DNA of 32,000 bases from Flavobacteriaceae bacterium (GCA_965224465.1 OZ245049.1:4110001-4142000), one strand, 5' to 3'; shown: positions 2,772-32,000, numbered from the stretch's first letter. Program-made: numbers and translations. Notes: a model not told the origin generated them from the sequence alone.

Positions 2772-3095
2772 CTATAAATCATTTTTATATCGGGAGACCA
2801 TCTCTTCTTGAGATTCCGCAGGACTACTACCATTTAGTTGTTCTTTTAACATCGTAGCCATTGTAGGGAAATTACTGCGTTTTATTTTGGATTCTTCGTC
2901 CCATAATTTTGATCGCATAAAGGCTTTGGCACAATGCAAAAAGGATTCTTTAATATTTATGAGGATGCAGGTTTTTGGAACGTTTTTTTCGTTTGAAAAT
3001 AAATAATTGAATTCTGTTGTAATACCAAATATATCTCCAAGTGAAGGTTTAGAAATGGAATTATTTTTGAGTTTGTCTAAATCGAAGATACAGAT
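2772..3095 (-). pseudogene. Gene remnant or small ORF of unknown family
   Basis: A 107-codon stop-free frame on the minus strand in otherwise AT-rich intergenic DNA. It has no ATG until codon 60 (MRSKLWDEESKIKRSNFPTMATMLKEQLNGSSPAESQEEMVSRYKNDL, 48 aa, 2772..2918). Its upstream part reads through a partial X repeat (3021-3070). It was too short for the ORF track. Confidence 0.25.
3021..3070 (+). repeat. X element copy A (left-end fragment only)
   Basis: AATACCAAATATATCTCCAAGTGAAGGTTTAGAAATGGAATT is near-identical to 11232-11275 and 31939-31985, and to the reverse complement of 14095-14138. No matching right end lies nearby. Confidence 0.7.
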
Positions 3096-3160: not shown

Positions 3161-5128
3161 TTAAATAAACCAGTTCCAAACCAATCCAAAACGAATGGTC
3201 AAGTCACGATATGGATAATTAGGTGCTGAGTAATAATCGCGTCCTGTAAAACTCGCACTAAAATTTTCTACTTTAAAGAACAAACGTGTTCTGCGAATTT
3301 CTGCATTTATAAAGAAATCTAACATGGGGAATGCTCCAATTTTAGTGGCGTTTTGAATAGAAAACTCGCTGAGTAACGGATTGTAATTATCAGCATAGTA
3401 TTTGCTGAAATATTTAAAGGTAATTCCGGTTTGTAAGAACATAGGGTTGCCTTTAAAAACATAGTCAGAAAAATAAAGAGTATTTCTAGTCACAAAAGTA
3501 GGGACATTTAAAATGGCATCATTACTAATAACTTCTTGGTATAAAAAAGTATTGTCTAAGGTGAATTTTCCTACGGTAATGGCTTTATGTGCTTTTATTT
3601 TCAAGTAATTAATACTCCCATTGTATTGTGCTGCTACTTGGTTTTTGTTGAAATAAGTGTAATCATTAATCAAAGAATAGCTAGCCTTTACATCTACAAG
3701 AAGGTCTGAATTAAATTCAAATCCCAGTTGTTGTACCTTTTGATTGTCAAAATTATTGTGCCAATTGTAATTTTTATAATCACTATGTTGTAAAAGAAAG
3801 TTAAAATTAGGCGTCTTACTAGAACTCAAGGCAGTTGCTTTTACTTCATAGAGACTGTCTTTTTTATAACTTGCCACAGCTTTAAAATCATAACCTGTAA
3901 TCGCATCGGTTAATAGAGTCGTAGCTTTTGCTCTAAATTTGAATTTTTGAATATGTGTATCCCAGTCTGCTCCTACAGACAACGCATTGCCTTTAAGTCG
4001 GTTTGGAATGGTTTTGTCCGTCAAATACAAGATTTTATTGTAATGGTAATTGTAGTTGAAAAGATTGGCGGTAGCACGTAATTTACCTAAAACTAAGGGG
4101 GATTTCAATTCAGCATACGCCTGATTGTTCATTTGTTGATATTCGGTATGGTCGTGTATTTTATCTTCATAAGAATCGCCAAAATAGGTGCTCAGTGCTG
4201 CTGTTTGATTAAAGCGGTAATGTTGGGTTTCAAAAGTGAATTGATGTCCGATTTTTAAGCTTGTTTTCGCTTGAATACTGTCGTTCATATTCCCTAAGGT
4301 ATAGTGGTGGTCTAGATAATACCGTTTGCCTTCAAACATGTTATTGGCATCGGTAAAATTAACTTCCATACGTCCACGATCACTAAAGTTCTTGTCGTTA
4401 GTTTTAAAATACCCCATCGATTTCTGGGTCAAACCTCCGTTCTCATCATTGTAAAAATCATAAGAAACAATGTGACCACGAGCGGCATAATTCCCTTTTT
4501 TAGACTGGTAATTAAAAGTTCCTCTAAAATTTCCATGGCTTGTCAACGAGTTCCTGAAATAACCTAAAGAGCGTAATCCTTTGTATTGAATAGAGAAATT
4601 AAACTTTTTAGAAGTGTTTACGGTAAACAAGATGTCTAGCATTTGTCCTTGTTCCATTCCTGTTCTGTACATGACCTCTGTAGTAGCAGTTGGTACTTCA
4701 AAGTAATTGATAGCTGCTACAGGGATGTATTCAAATTGTTTGGCTTCTGCACCTAAACGGGGGTAAATACTACCCTCAGAAAAATCATGTCCTAGTTTTT
4801 GAAAGGTTTGTCCTTGGTTATTGAAAGCGATCAATTCAAAATTATCCTTTCTTAAAATATTGTGTTTGAACTCTTTTTTCAAAGTCAAAGTGGTATCAAT
4901 ATAGGTAGTATCGTTCTGAAAAGAAATGATTTTATAGTCGGTAAAATGAGTTTTCCCACTCAGAGAAACGGTAATTTCATCGTCACTTCCACGAATAGAG
5001 TCTTGGTATTTCTGAATCTCATCGTTAGAATATCCTCTATTTCGTAGCCCTTCTTTATCTATTTTGATTTGAGCATTTGCTGTAAGTAATGTACAGCATA
5101 TTAAAAAAGTACTAAGAAAAAATTTCAT
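3161..5128 (-). CDS. Outer-membrane beta-barrel, putative porin family
   Basis: Signal peptide MKFFLSTFLICCTLLTANAQ, a Tyr/Asn/Phe-rich beta-strand pattern, and a C-terminal ...GLVWNWFI typical of OM barrels. ATG 5128 is preferred over TTG 5155 because a perfect TAnnTTTG box overlaps the TTG. Confidence 0.6.
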   Translation of the reverse strand: MKFFLSTFLICCTLLTANAQIKIDKEGLRNRGYSNDEIQKYQDSIRGSDDEITVSLSGKTHFTDYKIISFQNDTTYIDTTLTLKKEFKHNILRKDNFELIAFNNQGQTFQKLGHDFSEGSIYPRLGAEAKQFEYIPVAAINYFEVPTATTEVMYRTGMEQGQMLDILFTVNTSKKFNFSIQYKGLRSLGYFRNSLTSHGNFRGTFNYQSKKGNYAARGHIVSYDFYNDENGGLTQKSMGYFKTNDKNFSDRGRMEVNFTDANNMFEGKRYYLDHHYTLGNMNDSIQAKTSLKIGHQFTFETQHYRFNQTAALSTYFGDSYEDKIHDHTEYQQMNNQAYAELKSPLVLGKLRATANLFNYNYHYNKILYLTDKTIPNRLKGNALSVGADWDTHIQKFKFRAKATTLLTDAITGYDFKAVASYKKDSLYEVKATALSSSKTPNFNFLLQHSDYKNYNWHNNFDNQKVQQLGFEFNSDLLVDVKASYSLINDYTYFNKNQVAAQYNGSINYLKIKAHKAITVGKFTLDNTFLYQEVISNDAILNVPTFVTRNTLYFSDYVFKGNPMFLQTGITFKYFSKYYADNYNPLLSEFSIQNATKIGAFPMLDFFINAEIRRTRLFFKVENFSASFTGRDYYSAPNYPYRDLTIRFGLVWNWFI

Positions 5129-5199: not shown

Positions 5200-5207
5200 T
5201 ATATTTG
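5200..5207 (+). promoter_or_regulatory. Candidate -7 box (TATATTTG) for rnhB
   Basis: Perfect TAnnTTTG 81 nt upstream of ATG 5289. No well-spaced TTG -33 element was seen. Confidence 0.3.
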
Positions 5208-5288
5208 CGTTCTTTGCATCGTTATAATTCCAAGTGGTTTGAAGTCTTAATCTACACATCGCTTATTTTAAATACTGTTTATAAAATT

Positions 5289-5888
5289 ATGAGTCTGAAA
5301 TCTTTTTTTAAATTGAATTGTATTGAAGCAGGTACAGACGAGGCTGGACGTGGTTGTTTGGCAGGGCCTGTTGTGGCAGCAGCAGTAATTTTACCTGTTG
5401 ATTTTAAACATGAATTGTTGAACGACTCTAAAAAACTGACAGAAAAACAACGCAGTTTCTTAAGGCCTATTATAGAAAAACATGCCTTGGCTTGGGCAGT
5501 GGGATATGTATGGCAAGAAGAAATAGACGAAATTAATATTTTACAAGCTTCCATTTTGGCAATGCACAATGCTATAGATAAGCTCTCTTTGGTACCTGAA
5601 CACATTATTGTAGATGGAAATAAATTTAATCCATACAAAGAAATTCCGCATCAAACCATTATTAAAGGAGACGGTAAGTATTTAAGTATCGCGGCTGCTT
5701 CTGTATTGGCAAAAACATATAGAGATGATTATATGGAAAAAATACACCTAGATTTCCCATACTATGCATGGGATAAAAACAAAGGCTATCCTACAAAACT
5801 TCACAGGCAAGGAATTCGTGATCATGGCATCACCAAGCATCACAGAAAAACATTTCGATTGTTACCAGAGCAATTAAAATTATTTTAA
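5289..5888 (+). CDS. rnhB: Ribonuclease HII
   Basis: [25 protein letters not shown] and ASVLAK motifs of RNase HII. ATG 5289 (MSLKSFF...) gives the normal ~199 aa. The TTG 5205 extension in the ORF track is unlikely. Confidence 0.9.
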
Positions 5889-5902
5889 CCCAGTCTCCGC
5901 TT

Positions 5903-5924
5903 CGCAAAGTCTCCCGACTTAGCG
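5903..5924 (+). other. GC-rich hairpin at the start of each array unit (U1 copy shown)
   Basis: CGCAAAGTC-tccc-GACTTAGCG forms a 9-bp stem with one A.A mismatch and a 4-nt loop. The surrounding 30 nt are about 60% G+C by my count, in an AT-rich window. It is present in all 11 units, and U10 has one stem substitution. Confidence 0.6.
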
Positions 5925-5959
5925 ACATTATATTGCTCACATTAGCAAAGAATAAAATA

Positions 5960-6119
5960 ATAAAAGAAGGTTGTGTTATACGAGATCAAGAAAAGATACA
6001 TTTTACAGCTACTGTAATGGATTGGATTGATGTGTTTACAAGGAAATCGTACAAAGATGTAATTATAGAAAGTTTAGAGTTTTGTGTTCATAAATAGGGG
6101 GATGATACTTTATGACTAT
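5960..6119 (+). pseudogene. N-terminal fragment of an IS200/RayT-like HUH Y1 transposase (U1 copy; the same segment lies at about offset +63..+222 of every unit)
   Basis: Translation (M/I)KEGCVIRDQEKIHF(I)TATV(V/M)DWIDVFTRKSYKDVIIESLEFCVHK*, then in the other frame NRGMILYDYV. This fits the beta1-R-helix-beta pattern that precedes the HUH motif in Bacteroidota Y1 transposases, as I remember them (..YF.TF.VV.WIDVFTR..Y.D....SL.YC...KGL.IYAY..M.NH.H). The fragment ends before HUH. The start codon is ATA in some units, or ATG with a 1-bp deletion in others. Confidence 0.55.
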
Positions 6120-7462
6120 GTAAAACAAACAATTTATATCGGTCATTTTGGATTGTAATTGTCCCGCTTCGCAAAGTCTCCCGACTTAGCGACATTATAT
6201 TGCTCACATTAGCAAAGAATAAAATAATGAAAGAGGTTGTATTATACGAGATCAAGAAAAGATACATTTTACAGCTACTGTAGTGGATTAGGCTGATGTG
6301 TTTACAAGGAAATCGTACAAAGATGTAATTATAGAAAGTTTAGAGTTTTGTATTCAAAAATAGGGAAATGATACTTTATGGCTATGTAAAGCAAACTATT
6401 TATATCTGTCATTTTGGATTGTAATTGCTCCGCTTCGCAAAGTCTCCCGACTTAGCGACATTATATTGCTCACATTAGCAAAGAATAAAATAATAAAAGA
6501 AGGTTGTGTTATACGAGATCAAGAAAAGATACATTTTATTACAGCCACTGTAGTGGATTGGATTGATGTGTTTACAAGGAAATCGTACAAAGATGTAATT
6601 ATAGAAAGTTTAGAGTTTTGTGTTCATAAATAGGAGAATGATACTTTATGACTATGTAAAACGAACTATTTATATCGGTCATTTTGGATTGTAATTGCTC
6701 CGCTTCGCAAAGTCTCCCGACTTAGCGACATTATATTGCTCACATTAGCAAAGAATAAAATAATAAAAGAAGGTTGTGTTATACGAGATCAAGAAAAGAT
6801 ACATTTTATTACAGCCACTGTAGTGGATTGGATTGATGTGTTTACAAGGAAATCGTACAAAGATGTAATTATAGAAAGTTTAGAGTTTTGTGTTCATAAA
6901 TAGGGGAATGATACTTTATGACTATGTAAAACGAACTATTTATATCGGTCATTTTGGATTGTAATTGCTCCGCTTCGCAAAGTCTCCCGACTTAGCGTCA
7001 TTATATTGCTCACATTAGCAAAGAATAAAATAATAAAAGAAGGTTGTATTATACGAGATAAAGAAAAGATACATTTTATTACAGTCACTGTAGTGGATTG
7101 GATTGATGTGTTTACAAGGAAATCGTACAAAGATGTAATTATAGAAAGTTTAGAGTTTTGTGTTCATAAATAGGGGAATGATACTTTATGGCTATGTAAA
7201 ACAAACCCGCTTCGCAAAGTCTCCCGACTTAGCGACATTATATTGCTCACATTAGCAAAGAATAAAATAATGAAAGAGGTTGTATTATACGAGATCAAGA
7301 AAAGATACATTTTACAGCTACTGTAATGGATTGGATTGATGTGTTTACAAGGAAATCGTACAAAGATGTAATTATAGAAAGTTTAGAGTTTCGTATTCAT
7401 AAATAGGGGAATGATACTTTAGGTTGTGTAATTTAAACTCTGTCTGCTTATTTTTTTCTACG

Positions 7463-7522
7463 TTTTAAAATAGTTCGATTTTCTCTTCATAAGGCTGCTT
7501 TAAAAATCGAACTATTTTAAAA
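7463..7522. repeat. Perfect 20-bp inverted repeat inside the IS256 element
   Basis: TTTTAAAATAGTTCGATTTT (7463-7482) and AAAATCGAACTATTTTAAAA (7503-7522) are separated by 20 nt. The pair lies between the transposase stop (7542) and the IS end. Confidence 0.8.
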
Positions 7523-7541
7523 TGAGCCCTAGCGGCTAGCG

Positions 7542-8774
7542 TCACGAATTGCTTCCGTTTTTATGTAAATCCAACGTTATTCGATCTTCAAATTTAATAT
7601 ATAATTGTTGAATTGTCAAGCACCAATTATGTAAAGGGTTTGTCCATTTTTTTTCGATATTTTTTGTTGCTAAGTAAACAAGCTTCAATAGTGCCATATC
7701 ACTGGTAAAAGCCCCTTTTGTTTTAGTTACTTTTCTTACCTGTCTATGAAAACCTTCTACTGCATTTGTTGTGTAAATTATTTTTCTGATAGGTTCTGTA
7801 TACTGAAAAAACTGAGATAACTCTTCCCAATTACGGTTCCAACTTTCTAAAACTACAGGGTATTTTTCTCCCCATTTTTCTTCTAATTTCAATAACTCCA
7901 ACTCAGCAATATCTTTATTAACAGCCTTGTAAACAAGCTTTAAATCTCGAATAAATTCTTTTTGGTCTTTGGAAGCTATATACTTTAAAGAATTACGAAT
8001 TTGATGAACAATACACTTTTGAATTTGTGTTTTAGGAAAGACACTCAAGATAGCTTCTGAAAACCCTTTTAAGTTGTCTGTACAGGCAATTAGGATATCC
8101 TTAAGCCCTCTGTTATTAAGGTCTGTCAATACTTGAAGCCAAAAATTTGCACCTTCACTTTCTGAAATATACATTCCTAAAACCTCTTTGATCCCTTCTT
8201 TATTTACTCCTAAAACATTGTAAAGTGCTTTGTGTTGTATTTTACCGTCTACTTTTACCTTGTAATGCATAGCGTCAAGCCAAACAATGCAGTACATCTG
8301 TTCTATTGGACGACTTTGCCATTGTTTTATATCTGGTATGATCTTATCTGTAATTTGACTTAAAACAGTGTGTGATATATCTGTATCATACATCTCTTTT
8401 ATATGACCAGAAATATCGCGTAAGCTCATTCCTAGTCCATATAATCCAATGATCTTATCTGATAAATTATCTGCTAAAATGGTTTGACGCTTTTTTATCA
8501 GAACAGGCTCGAAACTACTATTTCTATCCGCTGGCGTGCTTATTTCAAAACTACCAATACTAGTTTTAACAGTCTTTTTGCCCTTTCCGTTACGTTTATT
8601 CCCTTTAGAACGTTCCTCTTCACTAAGGTGTGATTCCATTTCTGCTTCCAATGCTTTCTCAAGAAATTGTTTCATTAAAGGAGCAAAGGCACCTTCTTTT
8701 CCGAATAAACTTTTTCCTGATAATAATTGATCCAATGCCTTTTTTTCAATGTTGGCTAACTCGTCTTTTGTCAT
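7542..8774 (-). CDS. IS256-family (Mutator-like) transposase
   Basis: 410-aa ORF with the characteristic IS256 layout and motifs (...WLDAMHYKV..., ...ACTDNLKGF..., ...YTTNAVEGFHRQVRKVTK...). Confidence 0.92.
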   Translation of the reverse strand: MTKDELANIEKKALDQLLSGKSLFGKEGAFAPLMKQFLEKALEAEMESHLSEEERSKGNKRNGKGKKTVKTSIGSFEISTPADRNSSFEPVLIKKRQTILADNLSDKIIGLYGLGMSLRDISGHIKEMYDTDISHTVLSQITDKIIPDIKQWQSRPIEQMYCIVWLDAMHYKVKVDGKIQHKALYNVLGVNKEGIKEVLGMYISESEGANFWLQVLTDLNNRGLKDILIACTDNLKGFSEAILSVFPKTQIQKCIVHQIRNSLKYIASKDQKEFIRDLKLVYKAVNKDIAELELLKLEEKWGEKYPVVLESWNRNWEELSQFFQYTEPIRKIIYTTNAVEGFHRQVRKVTKTKGAFTSDMALLKLVYLATKNIEKKWTNPLHNWCLTIQQLYIKFEDRITLDLHKNGSNS

Positions 8775-8850
8775 GTTTTCTGTTTGAATAAAGTTAATAC
8801 TTTTTTTTATTCAGACAGAGTTGAGTTTACAGTCCCATACTTTATGACTA

Positions 8851-9978
8851 GCTGAATTCAACTTATAAACGCAACTTTTTGGTTAAACAATAATTGATTC
8901 ATTACAAATATAGGGTTTTGATATGAAAACCTTTTCCTAGGCCTTCTATTTAATTTTCCTTCCACCTGTTTTATCATCTGCTTAGTTAATATCGAAAAGT
9001 CACTTCCTTTAGGGAAATATTGCCGAATAAGCCCATTTAAATTTTCATTAGATCCTCTTTCCCATGAATGGTAAGGATGTGCAAAATAATAATCGATTCC
9101 TAAAAATTCAGCTACTTTTTTATGTCCTGCAAACTCTTTTCCGTTATCAGCTGTTATAGTGTTTATATACGGTATCCAATCTTCTAAAAGCTCATTAATA
9201 GCAGCTGTTACAACAGAAGATTCTTTAGATGCTATTTTTTTCATCTTTAGCATCCCAGAAGCCCTGTCATTGATTGTAAGAATGGCTTGATGATGATTTT
9301 TTCCAATTATTAAATCCACTTCTAAATCTCCAAAACGTTCTCTTTTCTCCACTATATCTGGTCGTTTTTCAATACTAATTCGATCTTTAATAATACCACG
9401 TGAGTCCTTGAATGCCCCTCGTTTCCTGTACTTCCTTCCTTGTCTTCTTAAATGAGTATAGAGTGTGCCTTTATGCTTCTTATCTTGCCAGATATGCTGA
9501 TAAATACGTTCTACTGAAACAACTTCTTTTCCTTGCTTAGTAAGTATTCCAACCACTTGTTCTGGACTATAATCATCACGTAACAGCTTTTCAACCTCGC
9601 TTCTTATCTTCTCAGTAAACCTAATGTGCTTTCGCTTTTTCTTATGTCTATCCTTCCACTTTCTATGTGCTAATTCGTATTCATAGGAGCCGCTACGAGC
9701 ATCGCAATTACGTTTGCATTCTCTACTTATAGTGCTTTTATGTTTCCCTATAGCCAAGGCTATTTTGGACTTAGAATACCCCTGTGATAACATACAGGTA
9801 ATTGTGTATCTTTGTTCTTTGGTTAAATGTGCCATACTACTTCTTTTTCAGAGACTTGAGGGCGTAAGGTAACTATTCCATCAAAACATGAAGGAGAGGT
9901 GACTCTCTTTCTGTTTTGAAAAATAAACCTTAGAAACTCTCAAATCTAAGAAGTTGCATTTACTACTTGAATTTAAGC
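8851..9978 (-). mobile_element. IS30-family insertion sequence (1128 bp)
   Basis: Imperfect ~27-bp terminal IRs (GCTGAATTCAACTTATAAACGCAACTT versus the reverse complement GCTTAAATTCAAGTAGTAAATGCAACTT). A 2-bp TSD, TA, sits at 8849-8850 and 9979-9980. It is inserted in the same unit U6, 6 bp beyond the IS256 TSD. Confidence 0.85.
8858..9835 (-). CDS. IS30-family transposase
   Basis: 325-aa ORF with an N-terminal HTH (LTKEQRYTI...GYSKSKIA..IGKHKSTISRE) and a DDE core (...DLEVDLI..., ...ITADNGKEF..., ...ERGSNENLNGLIRQYFPK...). Confidence 0.92.
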   Translation of the reverse strand: MAHLTKEQRYTITCMLSQGYSKSKIALAIGKHKSTISRECKRNCDARSGSYEYELAHRKWKDRHKKKRKHIRFTEKIRSEVEKLLRDDYSPEQVVGILTKQGKEVVSVERIYQHIWQDKKHKGTLYTHLRRQGRKYRKRGAFKDSRGIIKDRISIEKRPDIVEKRERFGDLEVDLIIGKNHHQAILTINDRASGMLKMKKIASKESSVVTAAINELLEDWIPYINTITADNGKEFAGHKKVAEFLGIDYYFAHPYHSWERGSNENLNGLIRQYFPKGSDFSILTKQMIKQVEGKLNRRPRKRFSYQNPIFVMNQLLFNQKVAFIS

Positions 9979-9980
9979 TA

Positions 9981-11232
9981 TGTAAAACAACCCGCTTCGC
10001 AAAGTCTCCCGACTTAGCGACATTATATTGCTCACATTAGCAAAGAATAAAATAAGGAAAGAAGGTTGTGTTATACGAGATCAAGAAAAGATACATTTTA
10101 TTACAGCCACTGTAGTGGATTGGATTGATGTGTTTACAAGGAAATCGTACAAAGATGTAATTATAGAAAGTTTAGAGTTTCGTATTCATAAATAGGGGAA
10201 TGATACTTTATGACTATGTAAAACGAACTATTTATATCTGTCATTTTGGATTGTAATTGCTCCGCTTCGCAAAGTCTCCCGACTTAGCGACATTATATTG
10301 CTCACATTAGCAAAGAATAAAATAAAGAAAGAAGGTTGTATTATACGAGATCAAGAAAAGATACATTTTATTACAGACACTGTAGTGGATTGGATTGATG
10401 TGTTTACAAGGAAATCGTACAAAGATGTAATTATAGAAAGTTTAGAGTTTTGTGTTCGTAAATAGGGGGATGATACTTTATGGCTATGTAAAACAAACCC
10501 GCTTCGCAAAGTCTCCCGACTTAGCGACATTATATTGCTCCCATTAGCAAAGAATAAAAGAGGTTGTATTATACGATTTCAAGAAAAGATACATTTTATT
10601 ACAGCCACTGTAGTGGATTGGATTGATGTGTTTACGAGGAAATCGTACAAAGATGTAATTATAGAAAGTTTAGTGTTTTGTGTTCATAAATAGGGGAATG
10701 ATACTTTATGACTATGTAAAACAACCCGCTTCGCAAAGTCTCCCGTCTTAGCGACATTATATTGCTCACATTAGCAAAGAATAAAATAAAGAAAGAAGGT
10801 TGTATTATACGAGATCAAGAAAAGATACATTTTATTACAGACACTGTAGTGGATTGGATTGATGTGTTTACAAGGAAATCGTACAAAGATGTAATTATAG
10901 AAAGTTTAGAGTTTTGTGTTCGTAAATAGGGGGATGATACTTTATGGCTATGTAAAACAAACCCGCTTCGCAAAGTCTCCCGACTTAGCGACATTATATT
11001 GCTCACATTAGCAAAGAATAAAATAAGGAAAGAAGGTTGTATTATACGAGATCAAGAAAAGATACATTTTACAGCTACTGTAATGGATTGGATTGATGTG
11101 TTTACAAGGAAATCGTACAAAGATGTAATTATAGAAAGTTTAGAGTTTTGTGTTCATAAATAGGGGGATGATACTTTATGACTATGTAAAAACAAACTAT
11201 TTATATCGGTCATTTTGGATTGTAATTGGTAT
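9981..11232 (+). repeat. Tandem array, right block (last 11 bp of U6, units U7-U11)
   Basis: Unit starts are at 9992, 10262, 10499, 10726 and 10963, with lengths 270, 237, 227, 237 and 270 bp. Removing both ISs and one copy of each TSD rejoins U6 as a 232-bp unit (7207-7421 + 8845-8850 + 9981-9991). U11 runs into an X right terminus. Confidence 0.97.
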
Positions 11233-11233
11233 A

Positions 11234-11394
11234 ATACCAATTACATTTCCAAGTGAAGATTTAGAAATGGAATTGTTTTTTGTTTTAGCTAGGCAAGAAA
11301 TCTAAGGATAGCCATAGCTATCGTTCTATTTTTTAACAACGCTGGAACGTAAAACAAACTATTTATATCGGTCATTTTGGATTGTAATTGGTAT
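11234..11394 (+). repeat. X element copy B (full-length, 161 bp, MITE/REPIN-like)
   Basis: Terminal inverted repeats are ATACCAATTACATTTCCAA (11234-11252) and TTGGATTGTAATTGGTAT (11377-11394). The element has no coding capacity and contains an internal short hairpin, GATAGC-cata-GCTATC. Confidence 0.75.
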
Positions 11395-11480: not shown

Positions 11481-12533
11481 ATGATTAAAAGAGGTCGTGC
11501 ACAAATATCAAAATTTATCATTCATAAAGTAGGGAATAAATTCAATAGTTCCACCAATGCTTTTTCGGACAAAATATTAGAATTTGATCAGGAGACTTAT
11601 GAAATGATGTTGCCTTTTTTATTAAAACCTTTTACAAATGTAGCGGAGAGTTTTCGTTTTAATCATCATGCAGACATTTCGTTGAATGAGATAAATAGTT
11701 ATACCAAACAAATGTTTGAGGACGGTGATTCTTTTGTGGAGGTTTCTCAAAACATGGTGAATCATTTATTTGAACAGTCTAATTCTGCTCAAATAAAAAG
11801 AGGAGATGTGTTGGTTGTGTTTTTTGAAGATGTAGAATATAGAGATGTTATGACTACCGCTATTGGGATTTTTAAAATAGAAAGTAAAACTAGTTTTTTT
11901 CAGACCTATATGGATGATGAAAATTTCGAGATTATGCTTCAGCAAGGGATCAGCACCAAGCGTATAGATAAAGGATGTTTGATTATTAATTCTACGGATG
12001 ATGAAGGGCGTACCGTGCTATGTGTGGATAATAACAATTACGATGCACAGTATTGGTTAAAGAATTTTTTGAATGTTAAATATGCGGATGATGCCAATCA
12101 GCATACAAATACGTATATAGAAATGTGTAAAGATTTTTCTGATCAGGTAATTCAAGAAGAATTTGGATTGCATGAAAAGAATAAATTTTTGGCGAGTACT
12201 GTAGATTTTTTCAGTGAAAACGATCACGTGAATATCAACGAGTTTAAAGAGGAAGTGTTTGAACCAGAGAGTGGACGTATGGAGCTTTTTGAAGAGTATA
12301 AAAAGCAGTATGAGGAAGCAAATGACGTAGTTGTTCGCAACGATTTTGCCATTTCAGACGTTGTTTTGAAAAAGCAAAAGACAAAGATGAAAACGGAAAT
12401 TAAATTAGATACCAACATCCAAATTAAATTAGACATCAATGCTCCTGATGCGTATACAGAATATATTGAGCAAGGTTTTGATGAGGATAAGAAAATGAAG
12501 TTTTACAAGGTGTTCTATAACGAGGAAAAGTAG
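11481..12533 (+). CDS. Nucleoid-associated protein, NdpA/YejK-like (NA37 family)
   Basis: 350-aa acidic protein. Its N-terminus, ..ISKFIIHKVGNK......FSD..L.....YEMMLPFLLKPF, fits the conserved Bacteroidota nucleoid-associated protein family as I remember it. Confidence 0.6.
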   Translation: MIKRGRAQISKFIIHKVGNKFNSSTNAFSDKILEFDQETYEMMLPFLLKPFTNVAESFRFNHHADISLNEINSYTKQMFEDGDSFVEVSQNMVNHLFEQSNSAQIKRGDVLVVFFEDVEYRDVMTTAIGIFKIESKTSFFQTYMDDENFEIMLQQGISTKRIDKGCLIINSTDDEGRTVLCVDNNNYDAQYWLKNFLNVKYADDANQHTNTYIEMCKDFSDQVIQEEFGLHEKNKFLASTVDFFSENDHVNINEFKEEVFEPESGRMELFEEYKKQYEEANDVVVRNDFAISDVVLKKQKTKMKTEIKLDTNIQIKLDINAPDAYTEYIEQGFDEDKKMKFYKVFYNEEK

Positions 12534-14028: not shown

Positions 14029-14138
14029 ATACAATTACAATCCAAAATGACAGATATAATTAGTTTATTATATGCTCTAGCGTTGTTAAAAAACAATTCT
14101 ATTTCTAAACTGTTACTAGGAAATGTATTTGGTGTTAT
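14029..14138 (-). repeat. X element copy C (internally deleted, ~110 bp, inverted orientation)
   Basis: The reverse complement reads AACACCAAATACATTTCCTAGTAACAGTTTAGAAATAGAATTGTTTTTTAACAACGCTAGAGC...TTATATCTGTCATTTTGGATTGTAATTGTAT. Both ends match copy B, and the internal ~50 nt are missing. One terminus overlaps the lipB stop codon (14135-14137). Confidence 0.7.
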
Positions 14139-29300: not shown

Positions 29301-29350
29301 CACACTTAAAATTAATAATCAAGGTCGCGTACCTTAAAATTTAACACAAA

Positions 29351-29926
29351 ATGCCAGTAAAAATTAGATTACAAAGACACGGTAAAAAAGGAAAACCTTT
29401 TTATTGGGTAGTAGCTGCAGATGCACGCGCAAAAAGAGATGGTAAATACTTAGAGAAATTAGGTACTTACAATCCAAACGTTAACCCAGCAATTATTGAC
29501 TTAGATGTTGATGGAACTGTAAAATGGTTAAAAGACGGAGCGCAACCTACAGATACTGCAAGAGCAATCTTGTCGTACAAAGGAGTTATGCTAAAATATC
29601 ACCTTGCAGGAGGAGTAAGAAAAGGAGCTTTAACAGAAGAGCAAGCAGCGGAGAAATTCCAAGCTTGGGTAGATGCTAAAGCAGGAAAAATTACTGCAAA
29701 AGAAGATGGATTAGCTAAAAATGTTGAGGAAGAAAAAGCGAAAGCTTTTGCTGCTGAGCAAAAAGTAAACGAAGACCGTAAGGCTGCTGCTGATGCAGTA
29801 AAGAACGAAGCTATTAAAGTTGCTGCAGACGCGAAAGCTGCTGCTCAAGCTGCTGTTGCCAAAACTGAAGAAGCGAAGGAAGAAGCTCCAGAAAGTATTG
29901 ACGACGCACAAAACGCTGCTGAGTAA
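29351..29926 (+). CDS. rpsP: 30S ribosomal protein S16 with an Ala/Lys/Glu-rich C-terminal extension
   Basis: MPVKIRLQRHGKKGKPFYWVVAADARAKRDG... is the canonical S16 N-terminus. About 100 aa of low-complexity tail follow. Confidence 0.93.
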   Translation: MPVKIRLQRHGKKGKPFYWVVAADARAKRDGKYLEKLGTYNPNVNPAIIDLDVDGTVKWLKDGAQPTDTARAILSYKGVMLKYHLAGGVRKGALTEEQAAEKFQAWVDAKAGKITAKEDGLAKNVEEEKAKAFAAEQKVNEDRKAAADAVKNEAIKVAADAKAAAQAAVAKTEEAKEEAPESIDDAQNAAE

Positions 29927-31759: not shown

Positions 31760-31939
31760 TTAGAGTTGTTTTAGGAAAAGGTTGCTCAATATATTTTTGG
31801 GGATCAAGCCACCATTACTGTTTGTGTTTGGCAATTTACAACCACGGATTAGTAAATAACATGATATTTGTTGGAACACTTAAATTAATGGCTGAAATAT
31901 TCGTGGTTTGTAAAATCAACGTTAAATAATTGCGAAATA

Positions 31940-32000
31940 ATACCAAATACATTTCCAAAGTGACGGTTTAGAAATGGGATTATTATAGCTAGGCGAAAAA
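31940..32000 (+). repeat. X element copy D (left end, runs off the window)
   Basis: ATACCAAATACATTTCCAAAGTGACGGTTTAGAAATGGGATTATTATAGCTAGGCGAAAAA is collinear with copy B (11234-11300), including the TAGCTAGGC segment. Confidence 0.7.

Follow-up and report, generated by a model that had tools for sequence, protein, structure and literature searches.

What multiplied the beginning of a dead gene eleven times in a row? In a 32,000-nucleotide stretch of DNA from a Flavobacteriaceae bacterium (GCA_965224465.1, OZ245049.1:4110001-4142000; referred to here as the window), the interval between the genes rnhB and ndpA is largely occupied by a head-to-tail array of units, each of which carries the 5' end of a transposase gene. 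An initial annotation, made from the sequence of the window, described this array and offered three interpretations: amplification of a dead locus by unequal crossing-over, serial integration of a non-autonomous unit, and a functional array. In this study, the array unit is identified as the 5' end of a REP/RayT (TnpAREP, 'REPtron'-like) element, where REP stands for repetitive extragenic palindrome and RayT for REP-associated tyrosine transposase, and the copy in the window is itself a remnant of such an element. Its amplification was probably seeded at the REP by a RayT acting in trans and then continued by unequal recombination.

The sole mechanistic model of the local amplification of REPs comes from in vitro work with one Escherichia coli enzyme. 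HUH enzymes leave a 5'-phosphotyrosine and a free 3'-OH, and the latter is able to prime synthesis or to resolve the covalent linkage (PMC8266576). In vitro, E. coli TnpAREP was observed to carry out cleavage and strand transfer (Ton-Hoang et al. 2012, PMC3333891), and in the model proposed for the amplification of bacterial interspersed mosaic elements (BIMEs) a nick adjacent to a REP is followed by extension of the 3'-OH by a host polymerase and joining of the new 3' end to the Tyr-bound 5' end, which adds one unit (PMC3333891). The array and its relatives at other loci provide a set of natural junctions with a left boundary fixed at the hairpin and a variable right boundary, which is the pattern of the model in another phylum and with an atypical REP.

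Structure of the array

Tandem Repeats Finder reported an array at 5895-7206 with a period of 270, 4.9 copies and 95% matches, and further arrays at 6970-7421, 9992-10498 and 10262-11197; the periods across the whole array were 270, 233 and 237, with 92-96% matches. In the alignment the units measure, in order, 267, 266, 270, 270, 237, 215 (unit 6, truncated by an insertion sequence, IS), 270, 237, 227, 237 and 270 nt and fall into three length classes (Table 1). The units abut without unique spacers, the entire 227-270 bp being repeated, and pairs of units are separated by 1-14 events (substitutions or indels) across 219 alignment columns. Variants are common to non-adjacent units (unit 1 with unit 11, unit 8 with unit 10 and unit 2 with unit 6), giving a mosaic pattern. 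The 17-nt hairpin core GCAAAGTCTCCCGACTT has 11 matches in the window, all on the + strand, against a chance expectation of about 0.07. The initial annotation had counted eleven head-to-tail units of 227-270 bp at the same positions, which is borne out by Tandem Repeats Finder, the alignment and the 17-mer count, and the sequence likewise confirms its placement of the array start (5897) 8 nt after the rnhB stop codon.

Unit 6 is interrupted by two IS elements. The IS256-family element is flanked by an 8-bp target duplication, ATACTTTA, at 7414-7421 and 8837-8844, and the IS30-family element by a 2-bp duplication, TA, at 8849-8850 and 9979-9980. Unit 6 is exactly restored when both elements are taken out with one copy of each duplication, as had been noted. 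The two elements lie 14 nt apart within one unit and point the same way, and each is flanked by a target duplication of its own; a local hotspot of insertion may exist in the A/T-rich unit end.

Each unit holds a sole open reading frame (ORF) of 52-55 codons, which is closed by a TAG common to all units, and no reading frame crosses from one unit to the next, so the array does not encode a repeat protein. For annotation, this explains eleven short 'hypothetical' ORFs as repeated pseudogene fragments. A CRISPR reading was rejected, there being no 24-48 bp repeats with unique spacers of similar size; the same conclusion had been drawn earlier from the length of the unit and the lack of spacers. 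The array is also neither rRNA nor tRNA, as had been stated, and a tRNA search of the window found none. The comparison with Rfam that had been recommended gave no match to the array unit at gathering thresholds nor at E<=1. A scan for sigma-70 promoters and intrinsic terminators, which did not cover Bacteroidetes-type promoters, found promoter-like sites in no excess and nothing that resembled a terminator.

Anatomy of the unit

From 5' to 3', each unit consists of a hairpin, a leader of ~35 nt and a transposase remnant, with or without a fragment of a miniature inverted-repeat transposable element (MITE). The hairpin is the REP. It occupies unit positions 6-29 in 11/11 units, once per unit and always on the + strand, and within the window it is confined to the array. 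Folded as single-stranded DNA, it has a predicted energy of -7.1 kcal/mol (z=-4.0).

The remnant corresponds to codons 1 to ~56 of a REP-associated tyrosine transposase homologue, i.e. the 5' third of the pseudogene. In a tblastn search with an intact homologue (from locus L007, described below), residues 1 to ~56 were matched eleven times, once per unit, with 62-72% identity in most units, and residues 77-199 had no match anywhere in the 32 kb. In each unit, either the start codon has been mutated or a 1-nt deletion follows it, and in the alignment a TAG with a +1 frameshift is present at codon 46 of all units. The transposase remnant is dead in every unit. Because the TAG and the frameshift are common to all of them, the amplification came after the death of the gene. 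The remnant breaks off just before the HUH motif, so that the HUH and Tyr motifs are both missing. The division into hairpin, leader and decayed Y1-transposase 5' end made by the initial annotation is thus supported by alignment and tblastn, while its term 'decayed HUH transposase' holds by homology only, the fragment itself stopping before that motif.

The X tail named in the initial annotation is confirmed and belongs to a 162-bp MITE, whose right end it forms and of which a full copy lies directly 3' of the array. The 270-bp units carry 33 nt of this end, only some of the units have the tail, and unit 11 closes with the complete 45-nt right end. The terminal inverted repeats of the MITE are ATACCAATTACA... 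and ...TGTAATTGGTAT, the family ends also being written ATACCAATTACATTTCC... and ...GGATTGTAATTGGTAT. The family has at least four copies in the 32 kb, the others being at 14032-14138 (-), ~3015-3080 and 31928-32000; one copy has a 47-nt internal deletion and two are only left halves, one of them ended by the edge of the window. Two MITE ends abut at 11210-11256, where they form a hairpin of -12.5 kcal/mol. The MITE is unrelated to the REP/RayT element, and no transposase could be assigned to its family. The tetranucleotide GTAA is common to both sides of the transposase-MITE junction, which suggests that this junction arose through a microhomology-mediated deletion.

Assignment to the REP/RayT family

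A 55-residue reconstruction of the transposase remnant was used as the query of a protein search, which gave 40 matches, all from Flavobacteriaceae or unnamed metagenomic sources, the named ones being Flavobacterium and Flavivirga. All 40 are short (31-97 residues) and are therefore fragments or pseudogenes; those that are long enough carry PF01797. The 55-residue fragment alone had no match in Pfam, and a full-length relative was thus needed for the family assignment. To find related loci, public genomes and metagenomes were scanned with the 22-nt hairpin core, which located 22 and 33 loci, respectively, 55 in all (denoted here by L numbers). The loci with titles are from Flavobacteriaceae, mostly marine (Flavivirga, Algibacter, Formosa, Polaribacter, Mariniflexile and several metagenome-assembled genomes, MAGs).

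Locus L007, from Flavivirga aquimarina, contains an intact gene for a 199-residue homologue, at about positions 330-926. This protein scores 101.5 bits (cutoff 80) against the NCBIfam model NF047646, 'REP-associated tyrosine transposase', and 28.5 bits (cutoff 23) against Pfam Y1_Tnp, and contains the motifs NHIH, WQ, YIHLNP and SS. It fails the IS200 model NF033573, with 20.1 bits against a cutoff of 55. The gene is flanked by inverted REPs (281, +, on the left and 977, -, on the right), as is a truncated copy at L001 (3560, +; 3833, -; 3975, -). Elsewhere the hairpin motif mostly forms convergent inverted doublets, 47-110 nt apart, which resemble REPINs or BIMEs. By the position frequencies of 106 distinct REP copies, the stem is preceded by (C)CCGCT-N-C, and GTAG is missing; conservation begins at (C)CCGCT, 7-9 nt ahead of GCAAAGT. 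The closing pair of the stem covaries across loci (CG 17, GC 12, AU 2, UA 1). Several differently decayed transposase copies are present in related genomes (L001, L003, L015, L025 and L053).

The intact relative, the inverted REP ends, the doublets dispersed in related genomes and the missing GTAG together identify a REP/RayT-type system with an atypical REP. In its differently decayed copies and in the empty site of relatives (below), the system is more IS-like than a single-copy, vertically inherited, domesticated gene. The initial annotation had proposed an IS200/IS605- or RayT-type unit. The RayT/REPIN part of that proposal stands; the IS200/IS605 part, including palindrome-associated transposable elements (PATEs), was rejected on the NF033573 score and on the ends, which are inverted copies of one motif. 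It had also suggested looking for a full-length parent and for other arrays: an intact relative exists in F. aquimarina, and no second such array was found in the scans. In a sequence search of the PDB, E. coli TnpAREP (4ER8) was matched only marginally (E=0.37), and this match was not used as evidence.

RayT genes of the family often show characteristic disruptions. A right-end REP copy stands inside the RayT gene, in place of its middle, at L001 3800-3990; a REP-containing insertion of ~885 nt separates RayT residues 72 and 109 at L003 2123-3496; and a clean internal deletion has removed RayT codons 3 to ~95 at L053 3032-3461. These disruptions recall the 'REP insertions within tnpAREP genes' of Y1 subclass 2.4. 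A pair of REP-bounded elements of ~250 bp, separated by 607 bp, is present at L041 400-1400 (-) and L048 6200-7200, and their interior holds a degenerate trace of the RayT N-terminus. In sequence they look like internal-deletion (MITE-like) derivatives of the whole REP-rayT-REP unit, which implies that this unit was itself once mobile.

Tandem duplications at other loci

Tandem duplications of 14-88 nt anchored at the REP were also present at eight independent loci from other Flavobacteriaceae. In the MAG NORP129, 88-nt units consisting of the REP, the leader and the first codons, preceded by a 15-nt partial REP, occur four times in L008 (1137-1417, -) and three times in L024 (5626-5818, -), which are near-identical contigs of this one MAG. 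The unequal counts reflect either copy-number variation at the strain level or the presence of a duplicated region. The 88-nt unit also has a solo copy, which, with nearly the same endpoint, lies ~1.8 kb from the array across one intervening gene. A partial REP is duplicated over 16 nt in L001, L002 and L014 and over 14 nt in L011. One REPIN locus, represented by L035 and L046 in two metagenome samples, has iterations of 18-25 nt that differ in count between the two; those at the outer end lie at L035 1040-1260 (21 and 19 nt) and L046 1780-2160 (18, 25 and 25 nt). L050 has a 29-nt REP-containing duplication, and L041 and L048 have a 61-nt duplication at the right end.

The left boundary of these duplications, including those of the window, is fixed at 6-9 nt upstream of GCAAAGT, the point back to which the inner copies match the outermost one and which is the outer boundary of the REP; the exceptions are one case of 4 nt, owing to a substitution, and one that reaches 11 nt by chance. 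The junctions in the window conform to this rule, at 9 nt (270 type) and 7 nt (237 type) upstream of the core. The right ends vary from locus to locus, and no common dinucleotide comparable to the CT of E. coli was seen at these variable right-hand junction ends. Random duplications would place junctions anywhere in the unit, so the fixed left boundary, as read from these sequences, points to a site-specific break at the REP boundary.

Empty site in relatives

On four contigs from relatives, which carry the nearest NdpA homologues (91-93% identical to the NdpA of the window), rnhB and ndpA are separated by only ~100 bp, and the array, the REP and the MITE are all absent between them. The whole 5.5-kb block between the two genes is therefore a lineage-specific insertion, and it begins within ~3 nt of the outer boundary of the REP. 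The sequence AGTCTCC just upstream of unit 1 was considered as a partial REP and rejected; judging from the empty site of L028, it is probably ancestral flank.

Origin of the array

Taken together, the data favour an origin in which the 5' end of a dead REP/RayT element was amplified, with the first duplication seeded in trans by RayT and later copies generated by unequal recombination; we consider this history probable, though well short of certain. Under it, a REP/RayT element would first have inserted between rnhB and ndpA. The gene would then have been inactivated by loss of the start codon and conversion of codon 46 to TAG with a +1 frameshift, cut off after about codon 56 and joined to the MITE right end through the GTAA microhomology. 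Head-to-tail duplication would have followed, from the outer REP boundary to the MITE end (270 bp) or to a point just inside it (237 bp). RayT acting in trans would nick the single-stranded REP at its outer boundary, a host polymerase would extend the freed 3'-OH across the REP and the adjacent DNA, and the new 3' end would be joined to the enzyme-bound 5' end, thus adding one unit. The fixed left and variable right boundaries fit this nick, extension and strand-transfer model of TnpAREP. From two copies on, homologous unequal crossing-over and gene conversion, which are indicated by the mosaic spread of variants, would alter the copy number and create the mosaic, and the two IS elements would have entered unit 6 later. 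The pattern of REP-anchored duplication is observed; the enzymatic mechanism behind it, though the most likely one, is inferred.

Several points weigh against this origin. No intact RayT gene is present in the 32-kb window, and a trans-acting enzyme in the source genome has to be assumed. There is no inverted REP in the window, and among the fetched loci there is no other tandem array of transposase 5' fragments of this length. All of the other duplications are from MAGs or metagenomes, three of them being reproduced in independent assemblies, and no tandem REP duplication was found in the seven loci from cultured isolates. Slippage on CC microhomology could account for several of the short partial duplications, which run from a CC to the TCCC of the hairpin loop. 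In the array, the 270-type junction lies 2 nt further out than the 237-type junction (9 against 7 nt upstream), and the 237-bp form could equally be derived by a simple 33-nt deletion.

A more general and more tentative proposal is that flavobacterial RayT-type enzymes may produce tandem duplications in vivo, by a nick at the REP boundary, primed synthesis and rejoining at an arbitrary downstream point; we advance it as a possibility that falls short of being probable. If it holds, the array in the window and the 14-88-nt iterations elsewhere would be natural products of the RayT reaction and the first in vivo footprint of the amplification model derived from in vitro work on E. coli TnpAREP, and the reaction would be able to amplify hundreds of base pairs of adjacent DNA, gene fragments included.

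The strongest competing explanation is recombination without any transposase, in which a chance illegitimate duplication of the dead locus was followed by RecA-dependent unequal crossing-over. The mosaic variants and the near-identity of non-adjacent units are typical of unequal exchange and gene conversion, the window lacks a RayT gene, and a single 33-nt deletion converts the 270-bp form into the 237-bp form. However, recombination alone leaves unexplained why the unit boundary coincides with the outer boundary of the REP, and why the 14-88-nt duplications at seven other, independent loci have fixed left and variable right ends. The chance that a random junction falls there is roughly 3/L for each duplication (L being the unit length in nucleotides), and the joint probability is very small. 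This explanation is accordingly rather unlikely, but it deserves to be taken seriously.

Serial integration, in which a mobile non-autonomous unit of 237-270 bp, extending from the REP to the MITE end, transposed repeatedly beside an existing REP, is improbable. Y1 elements such as IS200/IS605 insert beside a fixed target without duplicating it, which favours such a process, as does the 88-nt unit of NORP129 that also occurs alone ~1.8 kb from its array. However, excision of the unit in the window would lack a defined right end, as the unit has neither a second REP nor the family's right-end hairpin; the scans of genomes and metagenomes with the 22-nt REP core located no solo copy of the 270-bp unit; and the partial REP duplications of 14-25 nt cannot be insertions of an element. 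The crossing-over and serial-integration interpretations of the initial annotation are in fact not exclusive, and the evidence favours REP-anchored seeding combined with later recombination.

The third interpretation, a functional array whose hairpins or leaders serve as RayT decoys, as barriers to transcription or replication, or as unit-length RNAs, has very little probability. In other bacteria, termination and mRNA stability are among the documented roles of REPs (PMC3333891), and a possible function of ordered REP arrays was suggested by Bertels and Rainey (PMC3116915). However, the site is empty in the closest relatives, substitutions and indels accumulate in the units, which have also tolerated two IS insertions, the unit has no Rfam match at E<=1, and the sigma-70 promoter and terminator scan described above, of limited value here since Bacteroidetes promoters differ, gave neither an excess of promoter-like sites nor a terminator-like site. 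Nothing supports this interpretation, and the array is most probably without function.

Inflation of one or a few copies by mis-assembly is scarcely credible: although tandem repeats of ~95% identity are hard to assemble, the units are told apart individually by their 1-14 differences and three length classes, and these differences, together with two different IS elements that sit with correct target duplications inside one unit, speak against an artefact.

Comparison with known systems

The initial annotation knew of no described class of bacterial element made of tandemly amplified transposase 5' ends; a claim that none exists is too strong. Tandem reiteration of REPs, REPINs or BIMEs with flanking DNA is already documented in Pseudomonas and E. 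coli (PMC3116915, PMC3733652, PMC3333891). Di Nocera et al. 2013 (PMC3733652) described tandem REP clusters 'reiterated in tandem with flanking DNA of variable length', and P. fluorescens SBW25 has ordered head-to-tail arrays of up to 12 REP-containing units, some beside RAYT genes (PMC3116915). The new features here are the Flavobacteriaceae host, an atypical REP that lacks GTAG, the presence of a single REP in each unit, the length of the unit, which takes in a third of a transposase pseudogene and a MITE fragment, and cross-locus evidence for a fixed boundary.

The system resembles the E. coli REPtron (PMC3333891, PMC8266576) in that inverted hairpin repeats border the gene for a Y1 HUH transposase, and E. 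coli REPs and BIMEs in the hairpin stem interrupted by a mismatch and in local head-to-tail reiteration. The copy number of E. coli BIMEs varies between strains; here, counts differ between L008 and L024 and between L035 and L046, and the relatives available for the locus in the window all have the empty site. The pattern predicted by the TnpAREP model, with a fixed nick site and a variable rejoining point, is the one seen in the window and at the other loci. However, the unit in the window has one REP rather than a REP/iREP pair, measures 227-270 bp rather than tens of bp and includes the 5' third of a transposase pseudogene as well as part of an unrelated MITE. At the 5' side, (C)CCGCT is the conserved motif in place of GTAG, the transposase family is multi-copy, decaying and insertionally polymorphic, in contrast to the single domesticated tnpAREP gene, and the host phylum is Bacteroidota. 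The SBW25 arrays share the ordered head-to-tail REP units that include flanking sequence, but there the units are ~184 bp long, with two different REP types and no transposase coding sequence, and the RAYT systems concerned are those of gammaproteobacterial group 2/3, whose REPs bear the GTAG tag.

As described by Quentin et al. 2018 (PMC6006769), Y1 subclass 2.6 (Bertels group 5) is found mostly in Bacteroidetes and has atypical secondary structures at its flanks; its signature is NH[LIV]H / WQ / YIH[QN]NP / SS, with a mean length of 179 residues, and tandem arrays are not mentioned in that work (PMC6006769). The motifs NHIH, WQ, YIHLNP and SS of the L007 protein and its 199 residues are near this signature, although its Y motif has L where Q or N is expected. 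By motif inspection, the L007 protein appears to resemble subclass 2.6, with subclass 2.4 also possible. Like IS200/IS605 and PATE elements, the system relies on the single-strand chemistry of a Y1 HUH enzyme, has hairpin ends and lacks a target duplication, but its ends are inverted copies of one motif, whereas IS200/IS605 elements have distinct left and right hairpins on one strand.

For the Bacteroidota RayT family, the fixed boundary gives a concrete prediction of the cleavage site, which would lie 6-9 nt 5' of GCAAAGT on the REP strand. The array further indicates that a REP process, or recombination seeded by one, can amplify several hundred base pairs of neighbouring DNA.

Feature coordinates and flanking region

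Table 1. Features of the array region, in window coordinates
Feature	Position	Strand	Remarks
rnhB (RNase HII)	5205..5888	+	left flank; stop 5886-5888; Pfam RNase_HII E=2.9e-41
Array part 1	5897..7421	+	Tandem Repeats Finder, unit alignment, tblastn
Units 1-5	5897-6163, 6164-6429, 6430-6699, 6700-6969, 6970-7206	+	
REP hairpin, unit 1	5902..5925	+	T-CGC-A-AAGTC / TCCC / GACTT-A-GCG-A
REP repeat sequence			CCGCTTCGCAAAGTCTCCCGACTTAGCGA
REP core starts	5904, 6171, 6437, 6707, 6977, 7214, 9999, 10269, 10506, 10733, 10970	+	
Unit 6, first 215 nt	7207-7421	+	
IS256-family element	7422..8836	-	transposase 7542-8774; Pfam Transposase_mut E=5.4e-98
Unit 6 piece between IS elements	8837..8850	+	14 nt, ATACTTTATGACTA; direct-repeat family D5
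IS30-family element	8851..9978	-	transposase 8858-9835; Pfam HTH_38, weaker sub-threshold rve and HTH_32
Unit 6 tail	9979..9991	+	TATGTAAAACAAC
Array part 2	9992..11232	+	Tandem Repeats Finder, unit alignment, tblastn
Units 7-11	9992-10261, 10262-10498, 10499-10725, 10726-10962, 10963-11232	+	
Full MITE copy, 162 bp	11233..11394	+	repeat families D4, I1, I2, I22; alignment
ndpA-like nucleoid-associated protein gene	11481..12533	+	right flank; Pfam NA37 E=2.5e-39

The NdpA protein of the window is ~70% identical to Lutibacter proteins and 93% identical to a protein of an uncultured North Pond MAG. Heptanucleotide microsatellites (CCATTCA, AGTCATT/CAGTCAT and TGGTGAC) occur in intergenic regions of the relatives, at L026 9897-9925, L001 4020-4210 and L008 ~3370-3440, one of them at an empty rnhB-ndpA site. 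Farther downstream in the window, an S16-Flavobacteria ribosomal-protein leader (RF03138, 46 bits), consistent with an origin in the Flavobacteriaceae, is located at 29311-29345 (+), upstream of an ORF at 29351.

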